The notes: generated by a model from the sequence alone, not told the origin. A stretch of 64,000 nucleotides of DNA from Anaerolineales bacterium (GCA_044226485.1 JBGAGY010000011.1:168806-232805), one strand, 5' to 3'. Shown: positions 1,374-63,837, counted from the first letter of the stretch. A program made the numbers and translations.

Positions 1374-1506
1374 GGCTACGGGCCGCATGAGCTTCTTGTT
1401 GTTTAGGTTTTGCCAAAGCCGGACCGCCGCGTGCCCCAGTCATGCGCCGAAGCCTCCTGGCTTTGAGCATCCAGTTAGCCCTGTCAGCTGCATGCGCTCG
1501 TCAGCC
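1374..1506 (-). repeat. attC-like repeat, degenerate
   Basis: ggctacgggccgcatgagct...ccagttagccctgtcagctgcatgcgctcgtcagcc aligns to the window consensus. Both arms recognisable but eroded. Confidence 0.55.
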
Positions 1507-1525
1507 GGCTATCGGCCGTCGACGG

Positions 1526-2344
1526 CTATTTCCCGCGCGATGCCGCTAACAGCGCCGCATAGTGCTCAGCGCGGGCCTGGTCGCCCATTACCCTGTAGAG
1601 CGCCTCCAGTTCCTCGAACACGTAGGGATCAACTTCTCCAGCTTCTTGCCATTCCTGCTCCAGTTTAAGCTGGATCTCCAGCGCCTTCGGGTAGTTTGCC
1701 ATGGCGCGATAGGTCGACGCCATCATCCATTTCGCAATCCGGACCCCTCGCTCACTCCCGTCTCTCTCCTTAGCTTCGCGTGATCGCACAAATTGTTCAA
1801 GGGCCTCGTCATAGCGCTTCTGCAAGTACAGGGCATATCCCACATTGTTCCTGAGTGAACCTTCCCATTTCTTGGCCTCTGGCTGTTGGGAGCCCTCCAT
1901 GTACGCTAACGCCTCCAGGTCCCACTTGAGTTGCTCATTCGGCTCCGTATCCACAAACGCCATCATGTGCAGCGCGTCGATGGCCAGATGATCAAGCCGC
2001 TCCGCCTTGGCGAGAATGAACGCCCGCCCAAAGGCATCTCGCGCCCGTGTTCGGGCGTCGTCAGTCTGCGACTCCGAAGTGTGCGTGGCCGAAGAATAGG
2101 TCCGCCCAAGCTCGAGCCAGTAACGCACCTGCGGCTCTCCAGCTGCCTGGCCGATCTCCCGGTCCACCTCAGCCAGAATTCGACGAGCCGCCTCGAAGTC
2201 CTTGCGGATCCCATATGTTCGTGCAATCTGCGTCTTGAGGATCAGCGCATCTTGTACTTCAGCGGTGGCCAGCGCAGCCCGGAAGCGCTCTTCGCTCAGG
2301 GCGGGCTGGCTGTGATCCCACAACTGCTGGATGTCGATTGCCAT
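1526..2344 (-). CDS. TPR-like helical-repeat protein (cassette-like)
   Basis: 272-aa ORF with helical-repeat composition, bracketed by degenerate attC copies. Confidence 0.7.
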   Translation of the reverse strand: MAIDIQQLWDHSQPALSEERFRAALATAEVQDALILKTQIARTYGIRKDFEAARRILAEVDREIGQAAGEPQVRYWLELGRTYSSATHTSESQTDDARTRARDAFGRAFILAKAERLDHLAIDALHMMAFVDTEPNEQLKWDLEALAYMEGSQQPEAKKWEGSLRNNVGYALYLQKRYDEALEQFVRSREAKERDGSERGVRIAKWMMASTYRAMANYPKALEIQLKLEQEWQEAGEVDPYVFEELEALYRVMGDQARAEHYAALLAASRGK

Positions 2345-2385
2345 AGATTGTCCCGATTTGACAGACGGTCAGTGCCTTGAGGGCA

Positions 2386-2471
2386 AGCTAACGGCCGGGC
2401 GAGCCGGTGAACCAAGCCCGGCCGATATCGGGCACTCGATTGGCCGCGCCAGCCGGATGCTTACGTGAACC
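2386..2471 (-). repeat. attC-like repeat, degenerate with internal deletion
   Basis: agctaacggccgggc / gagccggtgaaccaagcccggcc / cgattggccgcgccagccggatgcttacgtgaacc match left box, inner module and right arm of the consensus. Confidence 0.5.
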
Positions 2472-2490
2472 AAGTTTCGGCCACACGAGT

Positions 2491-3330
2491 TCAGGCCTCA
2501 GCAACCGTGAGAGGACGCGGCTGCTTTCCGTCGACATCTTGAAACCCATACTCTCGGGCAATCGCGGCGCTCACCACCACCTGCCCGGATTTGTTCAGAA
2601 TGTCACCATCAGCCGCCAATGCCGCCACTGCGCGCCCAACAAATAGCGGCGATTCCGAGTTGCTCAGATCAAAGAAATCCGCTGCCTTCATCACGCCTTC
2701 AGTCCGGACCAAACCCGGATACAGGCTGACCACTGCCACTCGGTGCTCACGCAACTCATGAGCCATGCACGCGGCCATTCTGTCATCTGCTGCCTTGGCG
2801 ACTCCATAGATCACGCCCTTGTCATCTCGTTGCGCTGCAAAGTACGACACGTTGACGATCAAACCTGAACCTTGCGCGATCATGAGCGGGGCCGCCAGGA
2901 CCGACGCCGTGTAATGCGCTCGTACGCCGGCCTGAAACGACTTATCCCAGCGAGACAAAGGAGCCGTCCAGAACCCTTTCTCCTTCCAGAATTCGGTTCC
3001 ATCGTTGAAGAGTTCGTACCCGCCCCAGACATTGTTCACCAATATGTCGAGCCGCCCCTGCTCAGTCGCTATCTGCCCGAACAGGTTCTCAACCTCTTCA
3101 TCGCGAGTGTGATCACATCGGACGGCTATGCCCTTTCCGCCCAGGCGCGTCACCTCATCGGCCGTCTCCTGTATCGTTCCAGGCAAGGTGACTGCCGCTT
3201 TGCCTTCCTCCGTTGTCCGCCCCGTCACATAGACTGTGGCCCCGGCCTCGCCCAATCCTTGCGCGATGCCCTTACCAACGCCTCGGCTCGCTCCCGTCAC
3301 CAGCGCGACCTTTCCCGTCAGTGTTCGCAT
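2491..3330 (-). CDS. short-chain dehydrogenase/reductase (SDR)
   Basis: TGASRGVGKG Rossmann motif and YGVAK (YxxxK). Start placed at MRTLTGK; the ORF-track start at 3408 would add an unsupported 26-aa N-terminal extension reaching into the attC-flanking spacer. Confidence 0.9.
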   Translation of the reverse strand: MRTLTGKVALVTGASRGVGKGIAQGLGEAGATVYVTGRTTEEGKAAVTLPGTIQETADEVTRLGGKGIAVRCDHTRDEEVENLFGQIATEQGRLDILVNNVWGGYELFNDGTEFWKEKGFWTAPLSRWDKSFQAGVRAHYTASVLAAPLMIAQGSGLIVNVSYFAAQRDDKGVIYGVAKAADDRMAACMAHELREHRVAVVSLYPGLVRTEGVMKAADFFDLSNSESPLFVGRAVAALAADGDILNKSGQVVVSAAIAREYGFQDVDGKQPRPLTVAEA

Positions 3331-3392
3331 GTGCCCTGCCCTCCATGAACCTGATGACCAGCCCGAGAGTGTAATCGATGATTGGAGAAACG

Positions 3393-3519
3393 GTCTACCG
3401 GCCCGCATCCGCTGCGTGGCAGATGGCCCAAGACCACCCTACCAACAACTCGCCATTGAACCGAGGCCAACCGGTTTGGGCACCCGGGCGGCCACATCAG
3501 CCGAAAGCGATTGGTCGGC
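3393..3519 (-). repeat. attC-like repeat, degenerate
   Basis: gtctaccggcccgcatccgctgcgtggc...cgccattgaaccgaggcc...gtttgggcaccc...gccacatcagccgaaagcgattggtcggc is collinear with the full-length consensus. Confidence 0.55.
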
Positions 3520-3562: not shown

Positions 3563-4258
3563 CTACGCGGCAGGCCTTCTAGCCACAACGATCATCGGAT
3601 TCGTCTCGGGCGTCGACTCGATCTGAAAACCCTGCGCTCTCAGCAACGCATGCAATTCCTCGACTGACCAGTACAGCGACGCATTCGAACGCTCGGCCAT
3701 GATCTTGGCGGCAGCCAGGAGCATGTTCCACGGCGTCTTTCGCTTCAAGATCCGGACTCGCGCGCGGATCTGTTGCCAGGCCGATTGATCATGATAAGCA
3801 GGTCGGAGAAAGTGCAGAACCACAAATGCGCCGCCGGGTTTCAGCACGCGTAAGACTTCTCGACACGCATGCGCCGGGCTTTGCACCGCCTGAAGCACGC
3901 TGATCGCGACCACGCCCTCGAAACTGTTGGGCGGCAGACTCAGCTGCCTGTCCAGATTCTGCAGGCCGAAACGCAGCCTCAACTTTGTGGCCGGCGTGAT
4001 CTTGGCTTTCGCTCGAGTGAGCATCCCGTCCGCCGCGTCAACTCCGGTGACATCGTAGCCCGCCTCTGCAAGCGCTACCGAATAGATTCCGGCACCGCAA
4101 CCGGCATCCAGGATGCGGGCCGAACCCTCCGGCAGAAGCGCTCCAACGATGTCAACCACTTGTTGAACGTGAGGCCGGGTCGGTGCCTGCTCATCCCACA
4201 TCCGCCCGATCAGGCTCCAGAATGCGATCCGCAGGCCGGCAGGGACGATCGACTTCAT
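3563..4258 (-). CDS. class I SAM-dependent methyltransferase
   Basis: 231-aa ORF with motif I ILDAGCGAGIY and VLKPGG post-I region. Confidence 0.9.
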   Translation of the reverse strand: MKSIVPAGLRIAFWSLIGRMWDEQAPTRPHVQQVVDIVGALLPEGSARILDAGCGAGIYSVALAEAGYDVTGVDAADGMLTRAKAKITPATKLRLRFGLQNLDRQLSLPPNSFEGVVAISVLQAVQSPAHACREVLRVLKPGGAFVVLHFLRPAYHDQSAWQQIRARVRILKRKTPWNMLLAAAKIMAERSNASLYWSVEELHALLRAQGFQIESTPETNPMIVVARRPAA

Positions 4259-12103: not shown

Positions 12104-12222
12104 CACCAACGCTCGATGGTCCAACCGTCCTAGTTGCTGGCTTCAGTTTCGCTCCACACGTTGGTGGTCAGGTCAACACCCAAAACAGGAGGACCCAGGT
12201 CAGCTGCCTGCGTTCGTCAGGC
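12104..12222 (-). repeat. attC-like repeat, degenerate
   Basis: Left caccaacgctcgatgg and right gacccaggtcagctgcctgcgttcgtcaggc match the consensus arms. Confidence 0.5.
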
Positions 12223-12255
12223 ACGTACCCAACCGCGTACCATCTCCCGAAACCA

Positions 12256-12735
12256 TCAATCGTCAATGGCCTCGACAGCGATGAATATCGTCACCGCTGC
12301 CGGCCCTTCGTATCGCTCGAAGTCCGTCGTGTAGCTGCGTTTGTGGCGTCCTGGCCTGGAAAAGTACTCCCATACCTGCCGCCAGAGGACTGGCACTACT
12401 TCCTGTGGGGTCCCCGCCGCATGAAACGCCAAATACATACCCGGTCTGACTCGAAGTACCGACTGCCCTTCCTCCGCATGGTACGTCTCAGGCACGCGCG
12501 CGCCAGCCGTCACATTGTAGGCCCCAGACGCGTCCGACTCGTAATCCCAGTAGACGCCATAGGCCTCAGCCGATACGCGGTTATTCTGGGCTCCTATGCC
12601 GTCGGCGAAGTATCTTCCCCATAGACTCGGGATCTTCGCTTGATCGACATCGGCCTCGGCCTCATTGGTGGTCCGCACCGTGATCCCCACGATCTGGAAA
12701 CCCTCGACTTCAACGACCTTTGGATCCATGAACAC
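12256..12735 (-). CDS. GyrI-like small-molecule-binding domain protein (cassette)
   Basis: 159-aa ORF with GTG start. Layout typical of the AraC-effector-binding/GyrI-like family (VEVEGFQIVGITVRTTN...). Confidence 0.8.
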   Translation of the reverse strand: MFMDPKVVEVEGFQIVGITVRTTNEAEADVDQAKIPSLWGRYFADGIGAQNNRVSAEAYGVYWDYESDASGAYNVTAGARVPETYHAEEGQSVLRVRPGMYLAFHAAGTPQEVVPVLWRQVWEYFSRPGRHKRSYTTDFERYEGPAAVTIFIAVEAIDD

Positions 12736-12757
12736 CTCGCTTCCGCACTGAGGGAGT

Positions 12758-12884
12758 GCCTAACCACTCGCATCGGGTACGCGGCAAATGAGCCGAGGCC
12801 GTGTTGCCCGAAGGCGCAGCGGCGAACCGGGGCCGGCCGGCTTGGGGCCCCGAGTAGTCATGTCAGCTGCATCGTTCGTCAGGC
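12758..12884 (-). repeat. attC site
   Basis: gcctaaccactcgcatcgggtacgcggc...gagccgaggccg...cttggggccccgagtagtcatgtcagctgcatcgttcgtcaggc. Confidence 0.8.
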
Positions 12885-12942
12885 TTTTGCCTGAACGCCA
12901 CAACCTGATAGCAATCCCGATCACGCCAGACTTGACGATCAG

Positions 12943-13728: not shown

Positions 13729-13818
13729 CTGATCCCTCCTGATATGTCGGCAATCCCTGCAAACTCACAGCTTGCTCGATACAACTCTGGCCTGACTCTC
13801 TCACGACGGTTCCGGACC

Positions 13819-13947
13819 GCCTAACGATGCCCAACAGCTGCGGGGCGGTTGAGCCAAGGCCGACTCGCCCGACGGCACGCCAGCGCGCCGAAGTCCGCAC
13901 GACCTGGGCCCCCGATTAGTCACGTCAGCTGCATGCTGTGGCTAGGC
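13819..13947 (-). repeat. attC site
   Basis: gcctaacgatgcccaacagctgcggggcgg...gggcccccgattagtcacgtcagctgcatgctgtggctaggc. Confidence 0.8.
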
Positions 13948-14114
13948 TGCGGTTGGAGTCACTTGCCACTGCGGACCTTATATCTCAAAACATCCCGACG
14001 AGTTGTGCAGGCGTGGGAGCCAGCCACGGCCCGAAACCGTGCTTACCAACGGACCGAAGAACACGAGACCCGTCCGAGTGCGGCGCGTTGTTGGCGAAAT
14101 GACCCACTTCATAG

Positions 14115-14684: not shown

Positions 14685-14727
14685 TCGAGAAATGCAGCCA
14701 GGCGACCCAAGGCGCTCACTCCTTGTC

Positions 14728-14760
14728 GCCTAATGTTGGGCATCAGCTGCAGGCCATTGC
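14728..14760 (-). repeat. attC fragment (one arm only)
   Basis: gcctaatgttgggcatcagctgcaggcc. A second small fragment, cctaatcagctgcg, lies at 14811-14825. Confidence 0.45.
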
Positions 14761-15047: not shown

Positions 15048-15155
15048 CAGGCTGGACCACACCCAGCCATAACAGAAGTGCAGGTGCCCGAACTCTGCTG
15101 ACGGCCCACAGCCGCGAGCAGTCACAGAACTGGCCACACCTCCGCCCTGGACAAC

Positions 15156-18064: not shown

Positions 18065-18076
18065 GAACCAACCGCC

Positions 18077-52733: not shown

Positions 52734-53567
52734 GAAGTCATCCTAAAAATGGCGCCTGAGCAGAATGCAGATGCAGGCCAACTGGACAAAGGCCAAGTAG
52801 TTCTCGATTTTGCGCTCGTAGCGGATCACGATCCGGCGGAAGTTCTGGAGCCAAGCGTTGGTCCGCTCGATCTTCCAGCGTCGTTTGTAGCGGCGCAACG
52901 GTCGTCCATCTTGGGTGAACCGGCGTCGGTTCGAACGGTTCGGCGCGATCAGTTCAATGCCTCGGCGAGCAAGGCGAGCATCATGTCCGTCACTATCGTA
53001 GGCTCCGTCGCCGATGAGGCGGCGGGGTCGAGCCGGGACAAAACGGGCTGCAAGAGTCGGTTCAACGAGGGCGATTTCAGCCGTCGAAGCAGCCGATACG
53101 TGAATGGCGACAGGAAGACCAGTGCGGTCTGCGATTGCCATGATTTTGCAGCCTTTTCCACGCCGCGTCTTGCCGATCGCGGCTCCCCCTTTTTCGCGGA
53201 GACGAAGGTGGCGTCGATGAAGCACTCCGAGAGATCCAGCTTGCCGCGCCGTTTGAGATCACGGGCCAGCGCTTTGAGGACCTTCTCGAACACGCCGGAC
53301 CTGACCCACTCCTGGAACCGCTTGTGGCAGGTCGACTTGGACGGGTATCGCGGAGAGGGCAGATCCTCCCACTGCGCACCCGTGCGCATCACCCACAGAA
53401 TGCCGTTCAGCACCGCTCGATCCGGGCAGCGCGGCCGGCCTTTGCCGTCGGCTCGTGCCGGTCGCTTGGGGATCAAGGGCTCAACCACCGCCCACTGTGC
53501 ATCCGTTAGGTCCATGGCTGCCGCACCTCTCGGTACGGCGCAGTGTACCCATTTTTAGGATAGCTTC
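52734..53567 (-). mobile_element. IS5-family (IS427-group-like) insertion sequence, 834 bp
   Basis: Inverted repeats gaagtcatcctaaaaatgg / gaagctatcctaaaaatgg. TA direct duplication at 52732-52733 and 53568-53569. Confidence 0.85.
52743..53515 (-). CDS. IS5/IS427-type DDE transposase, two overlapping frames joined by a putative -1 frameshift
   Basis: orfA LTDAQWAVVEPLIPKR...LNGILWVMRTGAQWEDLP. orfB ...IGDGAYDSDGHD...RWKIERTNAWLQNFRRI. The frames overlap at AAAAAGGGGG (complement of 53196-53205). Confidence 0.85.
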
Positions 53568-54355
53568 TACGGTCTGGCCGTCGCGCTCGAGCAGCTGGCC
53601 GATGATCTGGCCGATCGCGCCGGGTCCGGCCTTGACCTGCGGGTGAGCCTAACAGGCGAAGCGCGCTATTCGACGCTCGTGGAACAGCATGTCTATCGCA
53701 TCGTTCAGCAGGCTGCCGAGAACGCGCTCAAACATGCCCAGGGATCGTGGATAGAGATCTCGGGCACCCTCGACGCCGACGCTCTGGCGTTGTGGGTCAC
53801 CGACAACGGCGTCGGCATCCCCTTGGAGTTGACCACCGCTCTCGGGCCGCTGATCGCGCAACATCACTTTGGTCTTGCTGGCATGGTCGAGCGCGCGACT
53901 CTGATCGGCGCGGCTCTTGAGGTGCGGGCGCTGCCTCAAGGCGGCAGCACGGTGGGCGTGCGGTGGCCCAAGGCTAGCCATTCGTCATAGCTGGCATGCC
54001 CAGCACCACACGTGTTTGTGGAGTGGGACAGAGGATGGCCGCCGAACGCTCATCCAGGCGCCGCGCATAGATCGCGATCGGTTCTTTCGCGAAAACTCCC
54101 CCGAGGCCTCGCCGAGGCCGTCGACGAGTTCGCCTGAGAGGGTCTCAATTGTGCCGATCAGGCTGTCGCTCACGAACTGCGCAAACACCGCGACCTCCAC
54201 ACCCGTCCCCACACCGTTGTCGTCGTTGAACACAAGCGGAACCCCGGTAGCCTGAGGCTCTCCCCAGTCATCGGGAGCATCGATCTGGAATTTGTTGGCG
54301 CTCGTAGACTGTTTGGGTTCAGCTAAAGCCGGACAGTCGAGCCCCGTTTTGATTC

Positions 54356-55180
54356 CTACACTCTTGGCCTGATCGATGATAGGCCCGCCGCCAGGTGGGT
54401 CTCTTTGGCCATGAAGCGACGGGCAGCCAACCTGTCGCGTTTGATCTTCTCTCGGCGGTCCAGGATCTCCTTCGCTCGCCCAAAGTACACGTCCGCGGGC
54501 GTCAGGTTGTTCAGCGACTCGTGATAGCGGTGGTGGTCGTATTGCTCCACAAAGGATCGAATGGCGCGCTCGAGCGGCTCTGGCATGAAATAGTTCTCCA
54601 GCAGCACGATGTTCTTCATGGAGCGGTGATAGCGCTCGATCTTGCCCTGCGTCATCGGGTGGAACGGCGCCCCACGTGTGTGCTCAATGTTCTGCGCCTC
54701 CAGATACTCGCGCAACTCTTTGGAGAGATAGGCCGGTCCGTTGTCCGAGAGCAGCCGAGGTCGATGGCGCACGCGAGCGTGCTTGAGCCCCGAGGCTTTC
54801 AAGGCCAACTCGAGCGTGTCGAGCACATCGCTGGCGGCCATGGTGGACGTGAGCTTCCAGGCCAGGATGTAGCGTGAGAAGTCGTCCAGCACCGTGGAGA
54901 GGTCGTACCAGCCCCAACCCTGGATCTTGATGTAGGTGAAGTCGGTCTGCCAGAGCTCATTCACTCGCTTCGTGGGCGTGCCGAACGAGTCGGCAGCCGT
55001 GATCACCTCGAACGCCGGCGTCGTGACGAGATCGAACCGCTTGAGCAAGCGATAAACGCTGGATTCTGAGACGAAATACTGCTCTCGATCGGTGAAGAGC
55101 CAAGCGATTTCTCGCGCGAAGCCCTCGCGCGACGACTTATCCGGATACTCCAGAGCCAGTTCTAGGATTTGGCCGCGCAC
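54356..55180 (-). CDS. rve (DDE integrase-core) transposase segment
   Basis: LWQTDFTYIKIQGWGWYDLSTVLDDFSRYILAW...LLSDNGPAY...HPMTQGKIERYHRSMK. The N-terminal HTH part lies upstream, separated by an in-frame TAA. Confidence 0.8.
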   Translation of the reverse strand: MRGQILELALEYPDKSSREGFAREIAWLFTDREQYFVSESSVYRLLKRFDLVTTPAFEVITAADSFGTPTKRVNELWQTDFTYIKIQGWGWYDLSTVLDDFSRYILAWKLTSTMAASDVLDTLELALKASGLKHARVRHRPRLLSDNGPAYLSKELREYLEAQNIEHTRGAPFHPMTQGKIERYHRSMKNIVLLENYFMPEPLERAIRSFVEQYDHHRYHESLNNLTPADVYFGRAKEILDRREKIKRDRLAARRFMAKETHLAAGLSSIRPRV

Positions 55181-55280
55181 TTGCTCGGCGATGCGATTCC
55201 AAAACTGGCGCCGTTCCCTCTGCCGAGGCGAGAGCCCGTCCTCTCCTTCCTTTTAGTACTGGCGGTACCACTCATAGAAG

Positions 55281-55781
55281 CTACTGCGCGGCACGTTCAA
55301 TTGTTCTAGAACGCGGCCGGCAGGCAGAGGAGACTGCTCCACCACGCTGTTGATCTCCATTCTCTCGGCAGGTGAACGCCGGATCAGGCGTTCCATGGCT
55401 TCTCCCGACCCAGCAAGTTTTTTTCGAGCACGCGGTTCTTGAGGGAGAGCTCCACCACCAGCTGCTTGAGTTGGCTGACCTCATTGCGCAGCTAGCTGCG
55501 CCGCGCAACTCAAACACGCCGCGGCTATCGGCCTGGCGTTCGGTATCGCCGACCAGGCGCTTCTTGCCCCGCATCAAGGAACTCTTTGCTCCAGGTGTAA
55601 TAGAGGTTGGTGGCGATGCCTTCGCGCCGGCACCGTGCGGACCGTGTCCGCGCGCACAGCCGGTCTCGCCACGGATGCCTTCGAGGACGATGCGGATCTT
55701 GTCTTCAGCTGAGAACTTCCGCCGGGTCACCCGGCGGATGGTGCGAACGGTCTCTTCAACGGACGTCTTCTTCCTCGGCAT
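55281..55781 (-). pseudogene. IS orfA/HTH region with frameshifts
   Basis: Starts MPRKKTSVEETVRTIRRVTRRKFSAEDKIRIVLEGIRGE, then loses frame. EGIATNLYYTWSKEFLDAG is readable in another frame. Confidence 0.7.
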
Positions 55782-55866
55782 AGCGGCCTCCCTTGGGGCT
55801 ATACTATGGCCGGAAGTGTAACAATCTCAGAGGCTATTTTTGTCCGATTTCAGCTGACGACATACA

Positions 55867-55948
55867 GCCCGGCGACTCGCCGGTGAACCGAAGCCGGCAT
55901 TGACTTGGGGCCCCGGTTAGCCACGTCAGCTGCATGCGTTCGTTAGGC
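55867..55948 (-). repeat. attC site truncated by IS insertion
   Basis: gcccggcgactcgccggtgaaccgaagccggcattgacttggggccccggttagccacgtcagctgcatgcgttcgttaggc. The first ~45 nt of the consensus are missing at the IS junction. Confidence 0.8.
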
Positions 55949-56214
55949 GGTTTGAAGCTGTGCCAGAACCCCACTCTGGCCTCAAACCTCTTTGTTACGC
56001 CCTCGCCTGGCTCTCGACGGTTCTCCGCTAACGATCATTCCACCGCTCCATGCATCTTCCCATCTTGCGATTTCACGTAATCGTGTGACTGTCGCACAAT
56101 TTGCTCAAGGATGGGCAGCTCGATGTCGCTGAGCCGCGTGAGGTACACACAGACGCCTCTCGCCGTGTGCTTGCCCGGGCGCTCGAGCAGCAAGGATGCT
56201 GTTCAGGTTCACCA

Positions 56215-56730
56215 TCAAATCCTTCCCGTTGCGGGGCCGGATCGGATGAGGAAGTCGAGTTGCACGAAGCGTTGCTTCTTTCGTCGCTCGGTGCGGGGAT
56301 CAGTGACCCAGATCTCACAGCGGCTTGCAAAGGCATCGCCCTCGGGCGTCCGATCGCGATCAAACTCCAGCCCTTGTTCCGTCACCCAGTCGATCAGGTG
56401 GCCGTTCGAGCGCACGTCCTCGCCGCGATAGGTCAGGGTCGCATACTCGCCCGCCGGAATCACCCCCGCACGAACGCGCTGATCGCCCTTCAAAGGCTCG
56501 GGCACTACAAGGCCAACCTCTATCTCCATGATGCCTTTCATGTCGACAAGGTGCAGGCGCATGAAGATCGGGCCGTCATCGGGCGTCCCACTCGCTTTGA
56601 CCCAGCGGAGGAGTTCTCGCTCAAGCCGATCACGCTCGGCCAGCATGCCACGGTAAGGTGCAAATGCCCGGATACCAAGTGTATGTCGCTCGGCGCGTCT
56701 CGCAAGTGTGGGGCCTTCGGTGATCTCCAT
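56215..56730 (-). CDS. GyrI-like small-molecule-binding domain protein (cassette)
   Basis: 171 aa. IPAGEYATLTYRG and ...CEIWVTDPRTE typical of GyrI-like/AraC-effector-binding domains. Second member of this family in the window. Confidence 0.8.
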   Translation of the reverse strand: MEITEGPTLARRAERHTLGIRAFAPYRGMLAERDRLERELLRWVKASGTPDDGPIFMRLHLVDMKGIMEIEVGLVVPEPLKGDQRVRAGVIPAGEYATLTYRGEDVRSNGHLIDWVTEQGLEFDRDRTPEGDAFASRCEIWVTDPRTERRKKQRFVQLDFLIRSGPATGRI

Positions 56731-57010
56731 GTCTCATCCTTTCATGCTTTTTAGCAAATGGATTGGAAAATGGCAGGAACTATCATTTCGGTTTGTTGGC
56801 GGTTTTGCGTCGAAATTCGTAATGTGTCTGAACGAAGACTGTTTTCCCTGCCCCAACAACTGAACAAAGCGGATTCTATCGGCAACAGCGACAAAAAGGG
56901 TTTGATCCGGTCGACTTTGGCTGTCACCCTCGAATCCGGCGGTCTTGACAGCGTGACAAGTATATGACCTAACCATTTCTGTATTCGGAACTTCTGCGCC
57001 CGCGGGGTCC

Positions 57011-57139
57011 GCCTAACGGCCCGCATCAGCTGCGTGGCGGGTGAACCGAGGCCGGGCTGCCCGAAGGCGCGCCGGTGAACCGAGACCGGCACGGCTTGGG
57101 GCCCCAGTTAGCCACGTCAGCTGCATGCGTTCGTTAGCC
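57011..57139 (-). repeat. attC site
   Basis: gcctaacggcccgcatcagctgcgtggcgggtgaaccgaggccg...gccggtgaaccgagaccggc...cttggggccccagttagccacgtcagctgcatgcgttcgttagcc. Confidence 0.9.
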
Positions 57140-57173
57140 GGCCGGTGGTCTTTGAGCCAACGACTGCCTCCCA

Positions 57174-58370
57174 TCATAGGGCTTCCACCAATCTCACTGC
57201 CTCGCTAACACCATCTTCATCGGCACGAATGGCAGCGCCCAAGGCACCGGATTTCGCACGCATTGAAACATCAGATATGGCCTGTTCGATGGATCGCGCC
57301 AGTTTGTCAACGGTCATGTGGCCACGCGAAAAGTACCGAGGGCCTACGCCCATTTCAAAGACGCGCTGCCCCCAGTAGTATTGATCGATGATGTGTGGGA
57401 TCACAATACTGGGCACACCCGCGCATAACCCCGCAGCTGTCGTGCCAAAGCCACCGTGGTGAATCACCGCCGTCACCTGATCGAATAGCCAAGCGTGTGG
57501 CAGCGAGCCAGCGGAATATACCGTGGGCGGCACAACCAACGTTTCCAGAATATCTCCCCAACCTTGCACAATGGCACGCGCTCCCGTTCGGCGCAGCGCC
57601 TCCAATACCATCTGCGCGCTTTGCCGGCCCTTGGTCGCCCCCATGACGCCTAGGCTGACCGCCACGGGCCGATCGCCAGCAAGCAAAAAGTCGAGCAACG
57701 CAGGCGGCGGTGCCCAACCGGGGGGAGGACGCGCGCACCAATAGTTGGTCTGATGTACCTGTGGTAGCCACCGTGGGTTTGCTGGCGCTACATGGTGGCT
57801 GACAGGCAGCAATATCAGGCGCGGCGAAAGCATGGTGGTGATGTCTTTCACCAACGGTGCGTTCACTCTTTTGCGAAAGCGGTTCGTGGGGCCGACAAAG
57901 AGTCTTCCGAGCGTCCAACCAAAGAGCCTTTCGATCACGGTTGGCGGGCCAGCCGGGAGAGTAGGAACACGCGCTGGCTGGAGGGTCACGCTGATCCACG
58001 GCTTGTTCAGCTTTTCAGCTTCGACCACACCACTCCCAGTATCCGACGTGACTACCAGATCCGCAGTCATGCAAAGCGCCAAAACGTCGGAGTAGGCATC
58101 TTGCACGAGTCGTCCGGCCAACTGCATCACGCGGATCATTCCCAGCCACATATTACCGAATGATCGCGCCATCAGTCGTGCGCCTTCAACGCCCATATCC
58201 ACCGGGTGCCCCACCGGTGCCGCTTGGAGGCCGTGTTGCTCAACCAATGGGCAGAGTGTCGGGTTGGTGGCCAGCGTCACATCATGGCCGGCATCCCTGA
58301 GACCCTCGCCCAAGACGATATAGGGTTGCACGTCACCACGTGATCCAATGGTAGCAACGATGATCTTCAT
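57174..58370 (-). CDS. GT1-family UDP-glycosyltransferase (MGT/sterol-glucosyltransferase-like) (cassette)
   Basis: KIIVATIGSRGDVQPYIVLGEGL N-terminal motif. C-terminal donor-binding HHGGFGTTAAGLCAGVPSIVIPHIIDQ. Confidence 0.9.
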   Translation of the reverse strand: MKIIVATIGSRGDVQPYIVLGEGLRDAGHDVTLATNPTLCPLVEQHGLQAAPVGHPVDMGVEGARLMARSFGNMWLGMIRVMQLAGRLVQDAYSDVLALCMTADLVVTSDTGSGVVEAEKLNKPWISVTLQPARVPTLPAGPPTVIERLFGWTLGRLFVGPTNRFRKRVNAPLVKDITTMLSPRLILLPVSHHVAPANPRWLPQVHQTNYWCARPPPGWAPPPALLDFLLAGDRPVAVSLGVMGATKGRQSAQMVLEALRRTGARAIVQGWGDILETLVVPPTVYSAGSLPHAWLFDQVTAVIHHGGFGTTAAGLCAGVPSIVIPHIIDQYYWGQRVFEMGVGPRYFSRGHMTVDKLARSIEQAISDVSMRAKSGALGAAIRADEDGVSEAVRLVEAL

Positions 58371-58388
58371 TTTGACATCCCAAGAGCC

Positions 58389-58484
58389 GGCTAACGGCCC
58401 GCATCAGCTGCGTGGCGGATGAGCCGAGGCCGCCCTACCCGAAGAGACGCCGGTGAACCGAGGCCGGCCTGGCTTGGGGCCCCC
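58389..58484 (-). repeat. attC site lacking its right-coordinate arm
   Basis: ggctaacggcccgcatcagctgcgtggcggatgagccgaggccg...ggtgaaccgaggccggcctggcttggggcccc, then unrelated sequence. No GCCACGTCAGCTG...GTTAGGC arm. Confidence 0.75.
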
Positions 58485-58634
58485 TCAATCCGTGCCCCGC
58501 GTAGATTTCTCGATCCTTGGGCACAGCGGACCCTTCCAAGCATACCCACAGTAAAAGGAAGCGGGCACAGAATGCCACCGAAATGGTAGGATTACGACGA
58601 ACTCGCGGATTTCACCGCAGAGAATGGTATCCGA

Positions 58635-59051
58635 ATGGACGTACAAGAACAAATCGACCAATACATCGCAAGCCAACCCGAACCCAAACGTCGCGACGTG
58701 CAGGAGTTGCATGGCCTCATTCGGAAAGTGATGCCGACGGACAAGTTGTGGTTTCTGGACGGCAAGGACAGCGCCAACAAAACGGTGTCCAATCCAAATA
58801 TCGGATACGGCTCTCACACAATTGCGTACGCTGATGGAACATCCAGAGAGTTTTATCGAGTGGGTTTGAGCGCAAACAAGGCCGGGATATCGGTCTACAT
58901 CCTGGGACTGCAGGACAAGACATACTTGGCCCAGACATATGGCGAACAACTGGGCAAAGCGAAAGTGACCGGCTATTGCATCAGGTTTCGGAGCCTAAAG
59001 GACATTAACCGTGATGTCCTTGAAAAGGCAATACGAGATGGAGCTAGGTGA
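58635..59051 (+). CDS. DUF1801 (YdhG-like) domain protein (cassette, inverted orientation)
   Basis: 138 aa. ...QYIASQPEPKRRDVQELHGLIRKVMP...GYCIRFRSLKDINRDVLEKAIRDG layout typical of DUF1801. GC lower than the flanking attCs. Confidence 0.75.
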   Translation: MDVQEQIDQYIASQPEPKRRDVQELHGLIRKVMPTDKLWFLDGKDSANKTVSNPNIGYGSHTIAYADGTSREFYRVGLSANKAGISVYILGLQDKTYLAQTYGEQLGKAKVTGYCIRFRSLKDINRDVLEKAIRDGAR

Positions 59052-59106
59052 GGCCACAGAGTGCCCATACTAGCCGTTAGCCCTACCTACCGTCTCTCCT
59101 TCGAGC

Positions 59107-59235
59107 GCCTAACGGCTCGCATCAGCTGCGTGGCGGGTGAGCCGAGGCCGCACCGCCCGACGACTCGCCAGTGAACCGAGGCCGGCACGGTTTGGGCACC
59201 CAGTTAGCCACGTCAGCTGCATGCGTTCGTTAGGC
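59107..59235 (-). repeat. attC site
   Basis: gcctaacggctcgcatcagctgcgtggcgggtgagccgaggccg...cagtgaaccgaggccggc...tttgggcacccagttagccacgtcagctgcatgcgttcgttaggc. Confidence 0.9.
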
Positions 59236-59325
59236 CGCCGTTTGCCTGCAGACTCCATCCAGACGACTATCTCTGGCCACACTCACAACCGACAACCCTC
59301 TTTGCCCGTGGAAGCTTTTTGATGG

Positions 59326-59733
59326 CTACAGCTCCCTGACCACGTCAAGAACGGGCTTCACATCGATAATCGGCGTCGCATCAAACGCCTCCAGATCCAA
59401 CACCTTGATCCGAGTCGGACTTTCGATCTGCACGATCCTCACTCGGTGGATTCCTACAGGATTGGGACGATCCTGCGACCGGGTGCTGAACACCCCTCGC
59501 AGCGGAACGCGCGAATCGTCCCGGGGATGCACGCTCAATACCTCGCGATCACCTCGATCAAGCCACGTGAGCACCAAGATCTCCTCCCCGGCGCGCAGGT
59601 CCTTCAACCCTTGTTCGAACTCTGGCTCGAAAACCAGCCAGGCTTCGGGCGCTCCTTCGAAACCCTGCTTCGGTGCATGTTCCCGATCCACGAGGGGCGA
59701 GCGAACATGACCGATCGGCTTGAGCGTAAACAT
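59326..59733 (-). CDS. TsaA/TrmO-like (UPF0066) domain protein (cassette)
   Basis: LKPIGHVRSP...GVFSTRSQDRPNPVGIHRVRIV...LDLEAFDATPIIDVKP are characteristic of the TrmO N-terminal beta-barrel. Confidence 0.85.
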   Translation of the reverse strand: MFTLKPIGHVRSPLVDREHAPKQGFEGAPEAWLVFEPEFEQGLKDLRAGEEILVLTWLDRGDREVLSVHPRDDSRVPLRGVFSTRSQDRPNPVGIHRVRIVQIESPTRIKVLDLEAFDATPIIDVKPVLDVVREL

Positions 59734-59760
59734 CCGATTCGCCTCCTATTTGGTGGAGCG

Positions 59761-59890
59761 GCCTAACGGCCGGGCATCAGCTGCAGGGCGGATGAGCCGA
59801 GGCCGAGTTGCCCGACGACTCGCCGGTGAACCGAGACCGGCCTGGCTTGGGGCCCCGATTAGCCACGTCAGCTGCATGCGTTCGTTAGGT
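59761..59890 (-). repeat. attC site
   Basis: gcctaacggccgggcatcagctgcagggcggatgagccgaggccg...gccggtgaaccgagaccggc...cttggggccccgattagccacgtcagctgcatgcgttcgttaggt. Confidence 0.9.
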
Positions 59891-59903
59891 GGCTTTCCGA
59901 CGA

Positions 59904-60415
59904 TCAGTTCTCCACACTATTGGCGAATCCACCCGCCAAACACCCAATACGGCCCCTGCATTCATCTGGCACGGAGTCCGCTAGAGACTCGTCCAGAACC
60001 CTCGTTTCGCCTCCGCCGATCGTGATATTGTCGCCGATCTTCCAGGATCTCGTCTCGCCCAGCGGGATATCCTCGACGGTGAGCGTCACTCCGTCGAATT
60101 CGTGGCGAAAGTCTGCCGGCCAAACGACTGTGTAGGTTTCCTCGCCCTCTGAGTACTTGATCCTCACACAGGAGCCTTCGCTCTCCAACGTCCCCTCTAA
60201 GAGGGCTGTCATTCTCGGGAGAGCAAAAAAGGTTCCCGTTGCGCTCGGCGCGGCCCCTGTTGGCTCCGCAACGGACGGTGTTGAGCTGGCAACGATATTG
60301 AATGAACACGCTGCAAAAAAACCAAGGCGCTGGCGACAAATGCGCTGGCAACCAAGGCGCTGGCGACAAATGCGCTGGCATTCCACAGGCAGAAGCGTGA
60401 CGTATCGGTTGACAT
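59904..60415 (-). pseudogene. putative lipoprotein cassette gene split by a frame change at a T7 tract
   Basis: Signal-peptide-like MSTDTSRFCLWNASAFVASALVASAFVASALVF is in one frame (ORF 60209-60415). The mature-looking part (A)ACSFNIVASSTPS... is in the -1 frame (ORF 59904-60431). The frames meet at G UUU UUU G (complement of 60315-60321). Confidence 0.5.
60321..60380. repeat. perfect 30-bp tandem duplication inside the cassette ORF
   Basis: accaaggcgctggcgacaaatgcgctggca x2, duplicating ASAFVASALV in the signal-peptide-like frame. Confidence 0.9.
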
Positions 60416-60481
60416 CCGGATTCCTTCCCACTACCCGCTCGACTCGGCAACAGGAATCACCCCCTCAGAATGCAAGGAGCC

Positions 60482-60609
60482 ACCTAACGCACTGGCATCA
60501 GCTGCGTGGCGGGTCTAGCCAGCCCGGGCTGGCCGAAGGCGCGCCGGCGATGCAACCACACTGGTTGGGGGCCCCGAATAGCTACGTCAGCTGCATGCCA
60601 TTGTTAGGC
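60482..60609 (-). repeat. attC site (diverged centre)
   Basis: acctaacgcactggcatcagctgcgtggcgggtctagccagcccgg...ttgggggccccgaatagctacgtcagctgcatgccattgttaggc. Confidence 0.85.
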
Positions 60610-60662
60610 CGCCCCAAAGGCGCTTTGACGTTCATAACGCAAGCCGCCTGGCTCAGACGATT

Positions 60663-61145
60663 CTACGATGGCCAATACACGCCCATAACAGCGATTGCGG
60701 TTACCAACATGACCACGACGACCTGGCTCGTGGACAAGAGTCCAACTGTTTCAGCCGGGCCCACAAGATACCGGTAGCTCTTCGGTACAGGGTATACGCC
60801 CCAAACCTTGAAAAAAACCGGAAACACCAAATGACCCAAGGCAATACTGCCCGCGAAAACGGGATAAACCATCTCCCGAGGGCTGCTGCCGTTCCGAACA
60901 AGATAGACGCCGAGGAGCAAGACGAGAACAGACAATGCACCCGCGCCCAAAGTCCAAACCGTCATGCGTCGATTGCTCCCCACATGAACTTCGGACAACT
61001 CAGTCAGTTCCGATTCAGAGTACTGCTTCAACCGAAATCGGATCAAGAATATGTCTGTCCAGAATACGGCTACACACCCCAACGCCGTCCACACAATTGC
61101 CCAAACCATTTTCGCCCCCTCAGTCGTCACAACGATGGCGAACAT
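60663..61145 (-). CDS. membrane protein of unknown function (cassette)
   Basis: About 160 aa from MFAIVVTTEG (or 148 aa from MVWAIVW) with 4 hydrophobic segments. The ORF-track N-terminus MPVSVRRCAVGRVGLGS... is attC sequence. Confidence 0.6.
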   Translation of the reverse strand: MFAIVVTTEGAKMVWAIVWTALGCVAVFWTDIFLIRFRLKQYSESELTELSEVHVGSNRRMTVWTLGAGALSVLVLLLGVYLVRNGSSPREMVYPVFAGSIALGHLVFPVFFKVWGVYPVPKSYRYLVGPAETVGLLSTSQVVVVMLVTAIAVMGVYWPS

Positions 61146-61162
61146 GTTCTTGTTGGTTGGCG

Positions 61163-61291
61163 GCCTAACGGCTCGCATCAGCTGCGTGGCGAGCGAACCG
61201 AGGCCGACCCGCCCGACGGCGCACCGGCGAACCGAGACCGGCACGGCTTGGGGCCCCGATTAGCCACGTCAGCTGCATGCGATTGTTAGGT
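61163..61291 (-). repeat. attC site
   Basis: gcctaacggctcgcatcagctgcgtggcgagcgaaccgaggccg...ccggcgaaccgagaccggc...cttggggccccgattagccacgtcagctgcatgcgattgttaggt. Confidence 0.9.
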
Positions 61292-61348
61292 GCACTGCTT
61301 GCGATGTATTTGTAGAAACGAAAACTGGGCCTTCGCCCAGTTTGATAA

Positions 61349-61654
61349 TCAACCGCCAGTCGTTCGACCCTGCTGCCATTGCTTGAGAGATTGCTGGCTC
61401 TCCCCAGATGGCTTTCCGAGAATCAAGTCCTCAACGGCAATATCTTCGTCCAATGCGGGCCAATGGATGCCCTGCCCCTGCCCGACGAGGCGCCAATTCT
61501 TTCGCTCATCGACGCTGCCGTGCAGCAACCGCGGATACCAGCCCAAAGGCACGGAAATCGTCCGCCCGTCCGACAGGTCGACCGTCAACGTGTCGTCGGT
61601 GACAACCACATCCTGAGCCCGCGCTAGTCGGATTTCAGAGGCCAAAGAACTCAT
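61349..61654 (-). CDS. DUF2442-family protein (second gene of a two-gene cassette)
   Basis: 101 aa. ...VVVTDDTLTVDLSDGRTISVPLGWYPRLLHGSVDERKNWRLVGQGQGIHWPALDEDIAVEDLI is the typical DUF2442 pattern. Overlaps the upstream gene by 20 nt. Confidence 0.8.
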   Translation of the reverse strand: MSSLASEIRLARAQDVVVTDDTLTVDLSDGRTISVPLGWYPRLLHGSVDERKNWRLVGQGQGIHWPALDEDIAVEDLILGKPSGESQQSLKQWQQGRTTGG

Positions 61655-61871
61655 TCCATTTCCTCATCAGTGTGTCGCGGTTGTCTTCCACATGACGCTG
61701 GATTTGGGTGATGTCTTTGCGACCAAATCCACCACTACTTTCGAGCCGGACTGGCTCAAGCCAAAACTTGGCAACATTGCTGTCTCGCTCAACATGCACA
61801 TGTGGGGGTTCGCTGCGATCGCCCGAATAAAAGAAGAAGCGATATGGCCCCACCCACAAGACAGTCGGCAT
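61635..61871 (-). CDS. DUF4160-family protein (first gene of a two-gene cassette)
   Basis: 78 aa. MPTVLWVGPYRFFFYSGDRSEPPHVHVERDSNVAKFWLEPV is the DUF4160 signature. The longer ORF-track N-terminus is attC-derived. Confidence 0.8.
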   Translation of the reverse strand: MPTVLWVGPYRFFFYSGDRSEPPHVHVERDSNVAKFWLEPVRLESSGGFGRKDITQIQRHVEDNRDTLMRKWNEFFGL

Positions 61872-61877
61872 TTCGCA

Positions 61878-61906
61878 ACAATATTGCTGAAAGGCGTTTC
61901 TGTCAA
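61878..61906 (-). promoter_or_regulatory. cassette-internal sigma70-type promoter TTGACA-17-TATTGT
   Basis: On the minus strand, TTGACA (61906-61901), a 17-nt spacer and TATTGT (61883-61878). The ATG at 61871 lies only 6 nt downstream, implying a leaderless or near-leaderless mRNA. Confidence 0.6.
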
Positions 61907-61993
61907 CTTTGCCGAAATGCAGCAAAAACGAGCCTATCTGGACGGTAGAGTGCCCCGTTTCCTTGCCTTCGATATTCTGCCCCGGCAGGGTGC

Positions 61994-62122
61994 ACCTAAC
62001 GGCTCGCATCAGCTGCGTGGCGGGTGAGCCGAGGCCGTGCTGCCCGCAGGCACGCCGGTGAACCGAAGCCGCCATGACTTGGGGCCCCAGTTAGCCACGT
62101 CAGCTGCATGCGTTTGTTAGCC
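61994..62122 (-). repeat. attC site
   Basis: acctaacggctcgcatcagctgcgtggcgggtgagccgaggccg...gccggtgaaccgaagccgc...cttggggccccagttagccacgtcagctgcatgcgtttgttagcc. Confidence 0.9.
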
Positions 62123-62129
62123 CGGTGCC

Positions 62130-62888
62130 TCACCGGCGACACCGACATACAAAGCGACTCACGGCATAGAAGAAACTACCCTCGGCGACCGCGTCGGCCA
62201 CATCGGCACGCCATTGCGCTAACTCACCGGCCCCAAACTCGGTTTCCGCAAGCCACTGCGACATAAGCCCCACGACTCGAGGAGCATAGTGGTCTTCTTG
62301 CCACGCCGAATTCACCAACGTGTACACCATCGGCTCGACCTCCGCAAAACCAGCCTTACGGCAGAGATGATTCAGCAGCCGGCCCATTCCAGCACCTTGT
62401 CCATCGCCGGCAAACGCCAGAACGGCTCGGCGTGATCGCGCTCGGTCCGAGGTCGAGAATACCTGGGTTTCCCAATCGGTATGTACTACCAGCGCCGTGC
62501 CGCCCGGTCTCAACACACGTCGAATCTCGGTGAGCGCCTCGATTGGCGGATTCACAAACTCCAGCATTTCTGCACAGATCGCCTTGTCGAAGGTCATATC
62601 CTCGAACGGCAGGGTACGCGCATCCGCCCTCCGATACTCAATTCGACGATCGCCGCTCCCGCTCTTCCAGCGCTCAATAGCCCGCAGATATCGCCGCTCA
62701 TCCGCCTCCACGCCTATGATCCGCCCTACAGCGGGATACTCTTGAGCCAGAAATCGATCCGCATCGCCTGTATCGCAACCAACGTCGATGATCGATTCGC
62801 CGCCGCGTGGTTCCAGCCATGAAAAGTACTGTCTCCACTGCGCCATGATGTCGGGCATCGGTCCATCCAGGAATCGTTCTTGCGCCAT
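62130..62888 (-). CDS. class I SAM-dependent methyltransferase (cassette)
   Basis: Motif I IIDVGCDTGDADRFL and post-I VLRPGG. The stop codon is 8 nt from the attC box. Confidence 0.9.
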   Translation of the reverse strand: MAQERFLDGPMPDIMAQWRQYFSWLEPRGGESIIDVGCDTGDADRFLAQEYPAVGRIIGVEADERRYLRAIERWKSGSGDRRIEYRRADARTLPFEDMTFDKAICAEMLEFVNPPIEALTEIRRVLRPGGTALVVHTDWETQVFSTSDRARSRRAVLAFAGDGQGAGMGRLLNHLCRKAGFAEVEPMVYTLVNSAWQEDHYAPRVVGLMSQWLAETEFGAGELAQWRADVADAVAEGSFFYAVSRFVCRCRR

Positions 62889-62915
62889 TGTTCCTCTCGA
62901 AATGTATCAGGCGAG

Positions 62916-63044
62916 GGCTAACGGCTCGCATCAGCTGCGTGGCGGGTGAGCCGAGGCCGCCACGCCCGATGGCGCGTCGGTGAACCGAGACCGGCCTGAC
63001 TTGGGGCCCCGAGTAGCCACGTCAGCTGCATGCGTTCGTTAGCC
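62916..63044 (-). repeat. attC site
   Basis: ggctaacggctcgcatcagctgcgtggcgggtgagccgaggccg...tcggtgaaccgagaccggc...cttggggccccgagtagccacgtcagctgcatgcgttcgttagcc. Confidence 0.9.
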
Positions 63045-63097
63045 TGCCAGATCAGACGCGCCGGCGCTCAGAATTCGCCGAATCAGGCATTCTGGCG

Positions 63098-63694
63098 TTA
63101 CGGACCAACTGCGTACTCATTGCAGCCCAGATAGGCATCCAAGATCTGGGTCACACGCGTATCGACGGCACCTTGGTCGGGCATCAGATGTAGTTCCGGC
63201 GCGACCAACGCTTGAATGCCCGTGTACACGGTTTCATCGAGATTCCCGGTGACGCGCTCGATCGTGCTGCCCAGACCGCTCTGCCCCGTCAACCGGAGCA
63301 TCGTTCCTGCCGGGTTGAGCTCCAAAGGCAGCCACCCTGCATAGAACCCGCCCATCATCAACCGATTGCCCACCGCGGCAATAGTTTCCGCCTTCAACTT
63401 CCCTACACGGATAACATCGGGCTTCCGAACCAAGCTCACATCGAGAAAAGCGAATCCGTCGGCCCAAATGACCAACTCAGGCACGTACGTGCAGTAGCGA
63501 TCACCCGGCTGTGTGGTGGGGATAGGAACGCCCGGATAGTGCACCTCGGCCATCACCAGCTTGGTGACCTCGCCTGTTTCCAATGTCGGACCGAAGACTA
63601 CTCGAAACACGGCGATCATGAGCACAGTCAAGACGACGGTGAAGGTGATAAAGCCCCGCTTGCGTCGACTTCCTTCGTGGCTCACGAAAACCAT
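63098..63694 (-). CDS. N-terminally membrane-anchored protein of unknown function (cassette)
   Basis: 198 aa with a single TM helix (GFITFTVVLTVLMIAVFRVVF), followed by a soluble domain with no family I recognise. Confidence 0.6.
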   Translation of the reverse strand: MVFVSHEGSRRKRGFITFTVVLTVLMIAVFRVVFGPTLETGEVTKLVMAEVHYPGVPIPTTQPGDRYCTYVPELVIWADGFAFLDVSLVRKPDVIRVGKLKAETIAAVGNRLMMGGFYAGWLPLELNPAGTMLRLTGQSGLGSTIERVTGNLDETVYTGIQALVAPELHLMPDQGAVDTRVTQILDAYLGCNEYAVGP

Positions 63695-63707
63695 CCTCTT
63701 GGAGGCA

Positions 63708-63837
63708 GGCTAACGGCTCGCATCAGCTGCGTGGCGGGTGAACCGAGGCCGAGTTGCCCGCAGACGCGCCGGTGAACCGAGCCCGGCCTTGACTTGGGGC
63801 CCCGAGTAGCCACGTCAGCTGCATGCGGTTGTTAGGC
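63708..63837 (-). repeat. attC site
   Basis: ggctaacggctcgcatcagctgcgtggcgggtgaaccgaggccg...gccggtgaaccgagcccggc...cttggggccccgagtagccacgtcagctgcatgcggttgttaggc. Confidence 0.9.

Follow-up and report, generated by a model that had tools for sequence, protein, structure and literature searches.

Introduction

Sedentary chromosomal integrons (SCIs) are recognized by an integrase gene (intI), homogeneous attC recombination sites and either more than 19 such sites or conservation across a species. In Xanthomonas, the chromosomal integrons have inactivated integrases and decaying arrays, and intI, often as a pseudogene, still lies beside the array at a fixed locus. Clusters of at least two co-oriented attC sites with cassettes but no intI nearby, associated with insertion sequence (IS) elements, are known as CALINs (attC-site clusters that lack an integron-integrase), and both integrons and CALINs have already been reported from Chloroflexi in surveys (PMC4889954). 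Here we describe a 64,000-nt stretch from an uncultured Anaerolineales bacterium (Chloroflexota; GCA_044226485.1, JBGAGY010000011.1:168806-232805), hereafter the window. Repeats of one family delimit about 25 gene cassettes on this chromosome. We are confident in reading them as attC sites that bound cassettes in five co-oriented, CALIN-type arrays with no integrase in the window, the right cluster being intact and the four to its left decaying.

The locus resembles CALINs in its co-oriented sites, the absence of a nearby intI, its IS elements and its mostly non-resistance cassettes of unknown function, and the origins proposed for CALINs (rearrangement away from intI, loss of intI, insertion at secondary sites) fit the window (PMC4889954). 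Unlike the CALINs of that survey, it has five one-strand clusters within 64 kb with graded decay, an uncultured Anaerolineales host and attC sites as homogeneous as those of large sedentary integrons. With the Vibrio cholerae superintegron, whose sites (VCR) measure ~123-133 bp, it shares long (~127-nt), highly similar sites, dozens of small cassettes, toxin-antitoxin-like pairs, Cass2-type proteins and open reading frames (ORFs) co-oriented with the top strand. It differs from that system in that no intI, attI or promoter Pc is seen in the window, large blocks of host genes interrupt the arrays, the first extrahelical base is C rather than G, and the centre of the site is conserved and contains a direct repeat spaced by 34 nt. 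As in Xanthomonas, the arrays are chromosomal, no longer turned over and decaying in place; unlike those of Xanthomonas, they have no intI or pseudogene that tblastn could find in the window. Two of these traits, the C at position 16 and the graded, fragmented layout, are mildly unusual.

Results

Twenty-five repeats lie in five clusters on one strand

With up to three mismatches allowed, GGTGAGCCGAGGCCG matched the window 36 times against 5.65 expected; at least 36 matches occurred in none of 100 shuffles, and the good matches were on the plus strand only. The second motif named in a preliminary description of this DNA was not significant in the window by itself. A profile built from seven right-hand window copies found 25 copies at a cut-off of E<0.01, all 25 on the plus strand and in five clusters, and a second profile made solely from 31 copies of other genomes recovered the same 25. 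Two independent profiles thus bear out the preliminary description's count of about 25 co-oriented copies in five clusters. Its first copy, at 1374, is preceded by one further copy at 225-343. A scan of the window matched no Rfam family and no tRNA. The copies are listed below with bit scores and identities to an external consensus.

Cluster 1, plus strand, profile-match starts 225, 1378, 2398, 3396
225-343 (+): strongly eroded attC, 32 bits, identity 0.62, canonical hairpin fold lost
1373-1506 (+): strongly eroded attC, the TPR cassette's own site, 37 bits, identity 0.63, boxes CGGCTAC / GTCAGCC, AAC and GTT lost
2346-2470 (+): attC with left half eroded past recognition; the profile covers only 2398-2467 (model 54-122), the rest aligned with orthologues
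3393-3519 (+): eroded attC, 54 bits, identity 0.67, left box GTCTACC, AAC lost
Cluster 2, plus strand, profile-match starts 12195, 12760, 13821, 14956
12195-12221 (+): attC fragment, final 27 nt, at the left border (model 99-125, E=0.0014)
12758-12884 (+): moderately diverged attC, 82 bits, identity 0.84, right box GTCAGGC
13819-13947 (+): moderately diverged attC, 76 bits, identity 0.78, right box GCTAGGC
14954-15044 (+): eroded attC of the short form (91 nt), on the right border, model 1-43, right arm by eye and from repeat family D9, 110 nt from the stop codon of a host aldolase
Cluster 3, plus strand, profile-match starts 27167, 28336, 28969, 30146
27167-27286 (+): attC without its left box, at the left border, 82.5 bits, model 6-125, identity 0.76
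28334-28427 (+): short-form eroded attC, 23 bits, internal gap of 33 columns
28967-29098 (+): diverged attC, 48 bits, identity 0.75, right box GTCGGGC
30144-30271 (+): diverged attC, 86 bits, identity 0.79, right box degenerate
Cluster 4, plus strand, profile-match starts 45445, 46703, 47709
45443-45535 (+): short-form attC, shortened by deletion between its two internal GGTGARCCGAGGCCG repeats
46701-46829 (+): well-conserved attC, 99 bits, identity 0.88
47707-47781 (+): attC, left ~72 nt only, at the right border
Cluster 5, plus strand, profile-match starts 55851, 57013, 58391, 59109, 59763, 60484, 61165, 61996, 62918, 63710
55868-55947 (+): attC, right ~80 nt, cut by an IS at the left border, 70 bits, right-arm identity 0.97
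57011-57139 (+): near-consensus attC, 119 bits, identity 0.91, -42 kcal/mol
58389-58483 (+): attC without its right arm, model 1-92
59107-59235 (+): near-consensus attC, 118 bits, identity 0.89
59761-59890 (+): near-consensus attC, 109 bits, left box matching the right box of the 59107 copy
60482-60609 (+): attC of a variant subtype (GGCAT/ATGCC L box), 85 bits, compensatory C-G to G-C stem change
61163-61291 (+): near-consensus attC, 112 bits
61994-62122 (+): near-consensus attC, 119 bits
62916-63044 (+): near-consensus attC, 118 bits, hairpin z-score -4.4
63708-63837 (+): near-consensus attC, 116 bits, array running on beyond the window edge

In the attC centres (for example, 57040-57088), the nominally variable part is conserved, and GGTGARCCGAGGCCG occurs in it twice at a spacing of 34 nt. 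The short forms of ~91-94 nt (14954-15044, 28334-28427, 45443-45535) lack one of these two repeats, as expected from slippage between them. Other copies are truly truncated (12195-12221, 47707-47781, the IS-cut 55868-55947, and 58389-58483).

The same family occurs in genome contigs from metagenome-assembled genomes (MAGs) labelled Anaerolineales, Promineifilaceae, Caldilineales, Anaerolineae and, for one short contig, Planctomycetaceae, and in at least 120 metagenome stretches. From these we assembled 133 related loci (413 kb; individual loci are denoted by L numbers) with 391 sites by profile, and no locus has sites on both strands. The Planctomycetaceae-labelled contig (L005, CAZGMU010000591.1) is 2.5 kb long with three sites, so that either the contig was mis-binned or the family has spread outside Chloroflexota.

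The repeats have the boxes and bulges of attC sites

At the right end of the window, the unit of ~127 nt reads GCCTAAC-GGCTC-GCAT-CAGCTG-CGTGGC, then ~65 nt, then GCCACG-T-CAGCTG-C-ATGC-GTTC-GTTAGGC. Known attC sites range from about 57 to 141 bp, and the unit falls inside this range. Counts below refer to 351 distinct full-length copies from the window and the 133 related loci. Lengths of 127-129 nt were found in 321 of the 351, with short forms of 91-95 nt; RYYYAAC was strictly matched in 231 (66%) and GTTRRRY in 220 (63%), and most of the remaining copies differ just by a G at position 2 (GGCTAAC/GTTAGCC). In the window, the box triplets fit in clusters 4 and 5, and clusters 1-3 carry mutated AAC/GTT.

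Folded as single-stranded DNA, the unit forms a long hairpin interrupted by two bulges of one base each (z about -4.4). Counted on the plus strand from the 3' end, the box occupies positions 1-7, the spacer 8-11 and ATGC 12-15, followed by a bulged C at 16, CAGCTG at 17-22 and a bulged T at 23. A 6-bp stem stands between the two bulges, both of which are on the arm that faces 5'-AAC-3'. In known attC sites, extrahelical bases are found at 16 (usually G) and at 23/24 (a conserved T), with a 6-bp stem between them (Nivina et al., PMC5027507). The positions of the bulges, the stem and the arm therefore give the unit the canonical attC geometry, with the plus strand as the bottom strand. By every sequence-level criterion of box, length and fold that we tested, these repeats are integron attC sites forming one homogeneous ~127-nt family.

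The variant L box GGCAT/ATGCC, with its compensatory change, also occurs in L077 and L004. In some sites the left arm reads CAGGGC (59761-59890, 28967-29098, and 857-985 of L118); L118 has a compensating GCCCTG in the right arm, and the two window copies are mismatched between arms.

Box halves record exchange of the units as cassettes

Integron recombination crosses over within the core site, and the six outermost bases of a box thereby move together with the neighbouring cassette. The two boxes flanking a cassette should therefore be partners, an agreement not required of the pair within a single site. The outer 6 nt of the left box were the complement of the right box of the low-coordinate neighbour in 217 of 224 pairs (97%) and of the right box of the same site in only 115 of 351 copies (33%). 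Where the two predictions could be told apart, the partner was the neighbour in 141 cases and the site's own box in one. In cluster 5, the rule holds for each of the six adjacent pairs. Because each cassette carries a matched pair of box halves, the units have in the past been swapped as cassettes through core-site recombination, a footprint that points to an IntI.

This footprint also bears on whether the repeats could instead be other intergenic palindromes, REP/BIME-like or MITE, spreading on their own. Such elements might account for the lack of an Rfam match, the lack of an integrase nearby and the unusual conservation of the sequence, its "variable" central part included. A box-partner rule that holds across cassettes in 217 of 224 pairs is unexpected for REPs or MITEs. 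The canonical bulge geometry, the strict co-orientation in 133 loci with none mixed, the single co-oriented ORF per unit and the presence of the same units in several genomes in different contexts also speak against them. We consider self-spreading palindromes very improbable.

The sites delimit small, mostly minus-strand cassettes

When all sites were set to the plus strand, 145 cassettes had a dominant ORF on the minus strand and nine had it on the plus strand; in the window, 18 of 21 were minus. Bulge position and ORF direction thus agree and support the preliminary assignment of the cassettes to the minus strand, the plus strand being the recombinogenic bottom strand. With the minus strand as top strand, the arrays read right to left, so a canonical intI/attI is expected on the right, as that description had proposed. 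The plus strand, which carries the attC bottom strands, has a negative GC skew. Most SCIs have their attC bottom strands on the leading-strand template (PMC5371416), and the skew fits such an arrangement here, if weakly.

In integrons, attC sites bound small cassettes of a single ORF, mostly promoterless and running with the top strand. Here, intervals between sites measure 229-1967 bp (median 641), and in cluster 5 each interval of 530-1250 bp holds one ORF or one pair. Pfam matches among the products include Cass2, a DUF4160/DUF2442 pair, short-chain dehydrogenases/reductases (SDRs), alpha/beta hydrolases, methyltransferases, an APH-family kinase, a GGDEF protein, an MGT-type glycosyltransferase and TrmO_N. 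The cassettes of clusters 5, 2 and 1 illustrate this content.

55948-63707 (mostly -): cluster 5 cassettes encoding, by Pfam, GyrI-like, MGT-type glycosyltransferase, DUF1801 (+ strand), TrmO_N, two unknowns, a DUF2442+DUF4160 pair, a methyltransferase and an unknown
12222-14953 (-): cluster 2 cassettes encoding, by Pfam, a Cass2 integron-associated effector-binding protein (PF14526, E=1.7e-16), an SDR (adh_short) and a RibD_C reductase
3563-4258 (-): fifth cassette of cluster 1, without an upstream attC, encoding an S-adenosylmethionine-dependent methyltransferase (Methyltransf_11, E=3e-21)

Some of the cassettes recur in other genomes beside different neighbours, and the read set SRR28480388 contains an identical cassette. 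The methyltransferase cassette at 3563-4258 is 81% identical to an attC-flanked cassette in L033 and L039, the homology ending at 4293; the TPR cassette (1526-2344) is also present in L003, L009 and L068; and the alpha/beta-hydrolase cassette (46824-47678), together with the attC at 46701, is 92.6% identical to L058. When, as a third check of polarity, the attC sites flanking shared cassettes were compared, both sides were at the background identity of 0.75, the family being too homogeneous for this comparison.

Three further observations concern the cassettes. Right of the last cluster 3 attC, an isochorismatase gene (30656-31474) has a GC content at third codon positions (GC3) of 0.67, with 0.81 in the next gene; it may be a further cassette without its upstream attC. 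A cassette of unknown function contains a ~30-nt tandem duplication (aaccaaggcgctggcgacaaatgcgctggc, twice) at 60310-60380. Among the related loci, one family of short cassettes turns up in many loci, often with several copies in each, at 88-94% identity (L015, L092, L116, L110, L128, L040, L048, L085 and others), and may be a non-coding or very small-ORF cassette.

The sites are progressively eroded toward the left

Across 18 full-length copies, identity to the independent external consensus rises with coordinate (Spearman rho 0.77, p=1.6e-4), so that divergence tracks position, as the preliminary description had stated. The mean identities of clusters 1 to 5 are 0.64, 0.81, 0.77, 0.88 and 0.88. 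Of the left-to-right order given in that description, the overall rise stands; the cluster at 12-15 kb is no more eroded than that at 27-30 kb, and the rise is thus not strictly monotonic. Erosion extends into the functional core, the copies at 1373, 3393, 12758, 13819 and 28967 having lost AAC or GTT. Folding energies run from -29 to -42 kcal/mol among the cluster 5 copies and from -17 to -31 kcal/mol elsewhere, with the canonical hairpin lost.

The gradient could be uninformative about age if the left copies were older or different attC subfamilies under selection. A variant subtype does exist, with the GGCAT/ATGCC L box and its compensatory change (60482, L077, L004). The left copies, however, lack the AAC/GTT triplets and the hairpin, and the site of the TPR cassette can be followed between genomes. 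This attC scores 124 bits and is near consensus in the metagenome contig L068; in L003 and L009 it is half-eroded, with 89 bits in either genome and different positions affected, and the window copy, at 37 bits, is the most eroded. As these orthologous sites diverged independently, deviating at different positions in each genome, and that of L068 is still near consensus, the left copies show true decay; we give the subfamily explanation little credence.

Blocks of host genes and IS elements separate the clusters

The clusters are set apart by 8-15 kb blocks of ordinary chromosomal genes. GC3 is 0.773 in these blocks and 0.648 in the cassette ORFs (p=3e-6). The preliminary description had allowed for a single system spanning more than 62 kb; with these blocks of host composition intervening, the clusters are not one contiguous array. 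The principal features between clusters are as follows.

4.7-11.7 kb: gap with a BTAD/TPR regulator and secreted BNR/beta-helix proteins
15-27 kb: gap with a GntR-controlled sugar-uptake and catabolism operon
30.6-44 kb: gap with CAAX proteases, a sigma factor and a LuxR-type two-component system
44422-44557: third IS3-family fragment, 136 nt, left of cluster 4
47942-49540 (+): degenerate IS3-family copy, inverted relative to that at 54310-55867 (79.6% identity over 1634 nt)
50-54 kb: gap with a second two-component system
54310-55867 (-): IS3-family element (rve transposase, Pfam rve E=5e-25) inside an attC; the IS end ...CGACATACA is followed by attC from model position ~46

The degenerate IS3 copy lies 160 nt from a truncated attC. 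Two borders, at about 4293 and probably at 31474, are cassette starts that abut host genes without an attC. We looked for broken attC halves that match across the gaps and found no pair; none of the blocks is therefore a simple insertion into an attC.

Several features of these blocks are of separate interest. The inverted IS3 copies bracket a response-regulator/kinase pair, and the IS3 trio looks like a composite-transposon or inversion scar. An apparently frameshifted IS4/IS5-family element (52735-53642, minus strand; DUF4096 and DDE_Tnp_1) interrupts a histidine kinase gene, leaving the HisKA_3 start in ORF 50755-52734 and HATPase_c in 53643-53990. The sugar operon is 98.6% identical between window positions 14952-22506 and L134 (GCA_964578195.1, CAZOCD010000151.1). 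At the junction, the left arm of the attC is just ~87% identical, and the cassette beyond is entirely different and related to one in L033; this points to a recent exchange or a homologous recombination event within the attC, or else to an assembly chimera at the repeat. For synteny of the operon, the sole close relative was a 7980-bp contig, and distant relatives (62-70% identity) differ in gene order and are without attC.

The layout must be weighed against a very large sedentary chromosomal integron, with intI/attI shortly to the right of 64000, in which all five clusters belonged to one array and the host blocks moved in later. All 25 sites are on one strand, the polarity points right, conservation increases rightward and cluster 5 crosses the window edge; broken attCs at cluster borders and the IS elements bordering clusters 4 and 5 would also fit. 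Against such an origin, no broken attC halves match across a gap, as simple insertion of a block would leave, and at the right edges of clusters 1 and 3, what appear to be cassette starts sit directly beside host genes. Co-orientation of five clusters has a probability of about 1/16 by chance, and replication direction could impose it (PMC5371416). The related arrays described below add to these objections, and we regard one very large integron as a possibility, though a rather doubtful one.

No integrase was found in the window or in related loci

A tblastn search with IntI1 gave no window match below E=4 and nothing beyond noise in the related loci, and Pfam scans of about 70 window ORFs found no PF00589, the only recombinase-type hits being DDE transposases. 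Both searches support the preliminary description's statement that the 64 kb contain no tyrosine recombinase. A weak match to the IntI1 N terminus in L054 proved to be PIN/antitoxin and methyltransferase cassettes.

No integrase was found in any of the 133 related loci. These included 12 array ends on the predicted integrase side with at least 1.4 kb of readable flank, bordered by housekeeping genes, which tells against a single large integron, as does one MAG (CAYZRP01) that has two different array ends on this side. In L006, L011, L044 and L048, the arrays share a common end, where the first cassette abuts the 3' end of a gene of 896 aa for an ADP-forming acetyl-CoA synthetase/GNAT protein. 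The first cassette differs in each of the four, so this end has turned over while its position stayed fixed. We searched this end for an attI-like junction; the homology of the four assemblies begins at the stop codon, and no box is visible.

Since the related array ends are without an integrase, we consider an intI just right of 64000 rather unlikely and lean toward there being none immediately beyond the window. Because no related array end with a readable flank carried one, the cassette arrays of this lineage might, as a rule, be uncoupled from an adjacent integrase and depend for movement on a rare or distant recombinase acting in trans, with the clusters being a time series of one fossilising array. 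We hold this to be a speculative and fairly improbable scenario.

Discussion

We favor CALIN-type arrays of attC-bounded cassettes, of which only the right cluster is intact. By analogy with known integrons, the single-stranded plus (bottom) strand would fold into a hairpin whose R box (GCCTAAC/GTTAGGC) is joined through a few unpaired spacer bases to an L box in which C16 and T23 bulge out. This hairpin would be bound by a tyrosine recombinase of the IntI type, which would cut between the A and C of the left-box 5'-AAC-3', and cassettes, each a minus-strand ORF followed by its attC, would leave the array as circles and be inserted again. The cluster farthest to the right (55.9-64 kb and on past the edge) appears intact and is probably still mobilisable. 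The four left clusters would be older remnants, no longer refreshed and isolated by rearrangements, two borders carrying IS elements; their attCs would have decayed neutrally, while many of their genes are intact. The arrays are possibly the distal part of a sedentary chromosomal integron.

Several points count against this interpretation. The C at position 16, where G is usual, is the sole departure from the canonical geometry. The stems are near-invariant, so that support from covariation is thin (19 pairs, few compensatory changes). The related loci were collected with an exact 22-base right-arm pattern, which favours intact sites. The erosion gradient is drawn from only five clusters, of which clusters 2 and 3 break the order. 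No integrase of the lineage was found; the IntI1 query was entered by hand, and the window ends inside cluster 5, so that an integrase could lie just beyond.

How the locus is classified depends on the unit considered. By the 4-kb rule of IntegronFinder, the clusters would count as separate CALINs (PMC4889954), and clusters 1-4, with gaps of 8-15 kb and no intI, are CALINs in this sense; the right side of cluster 5 lies beyond the window. The adjacent intI (a tyrosine recombinase bearing the IntI-specific insertion), attI and Pc of a complete integron were not seen in the 64-kb window. Among the features of sedentary chromosomal integrons, cluster 5 has homogeneous sites (identity 0.87-0.91), of which ten are visible before the window ends, and the 25 sites overall are non-contiguous.

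The window cassettes carry no known resistance determinants, the nearest candidates being an APH-family phosphotransferase and a macrolide-glycosyltransferase-like enzyme. The locus adds a well-documented cassette system for Chloroflexota, where integrons are known only from genome surveys. Five clusters in graded decay, together with the same cassette bearing intact or eroded attC sites, form a natural record of mobile cassettes becoming fixed chromosomal genes. If the arrays were indeed uncoupled from an integrase and the clusters a time series, attC decay and cassette domestication would become datable.

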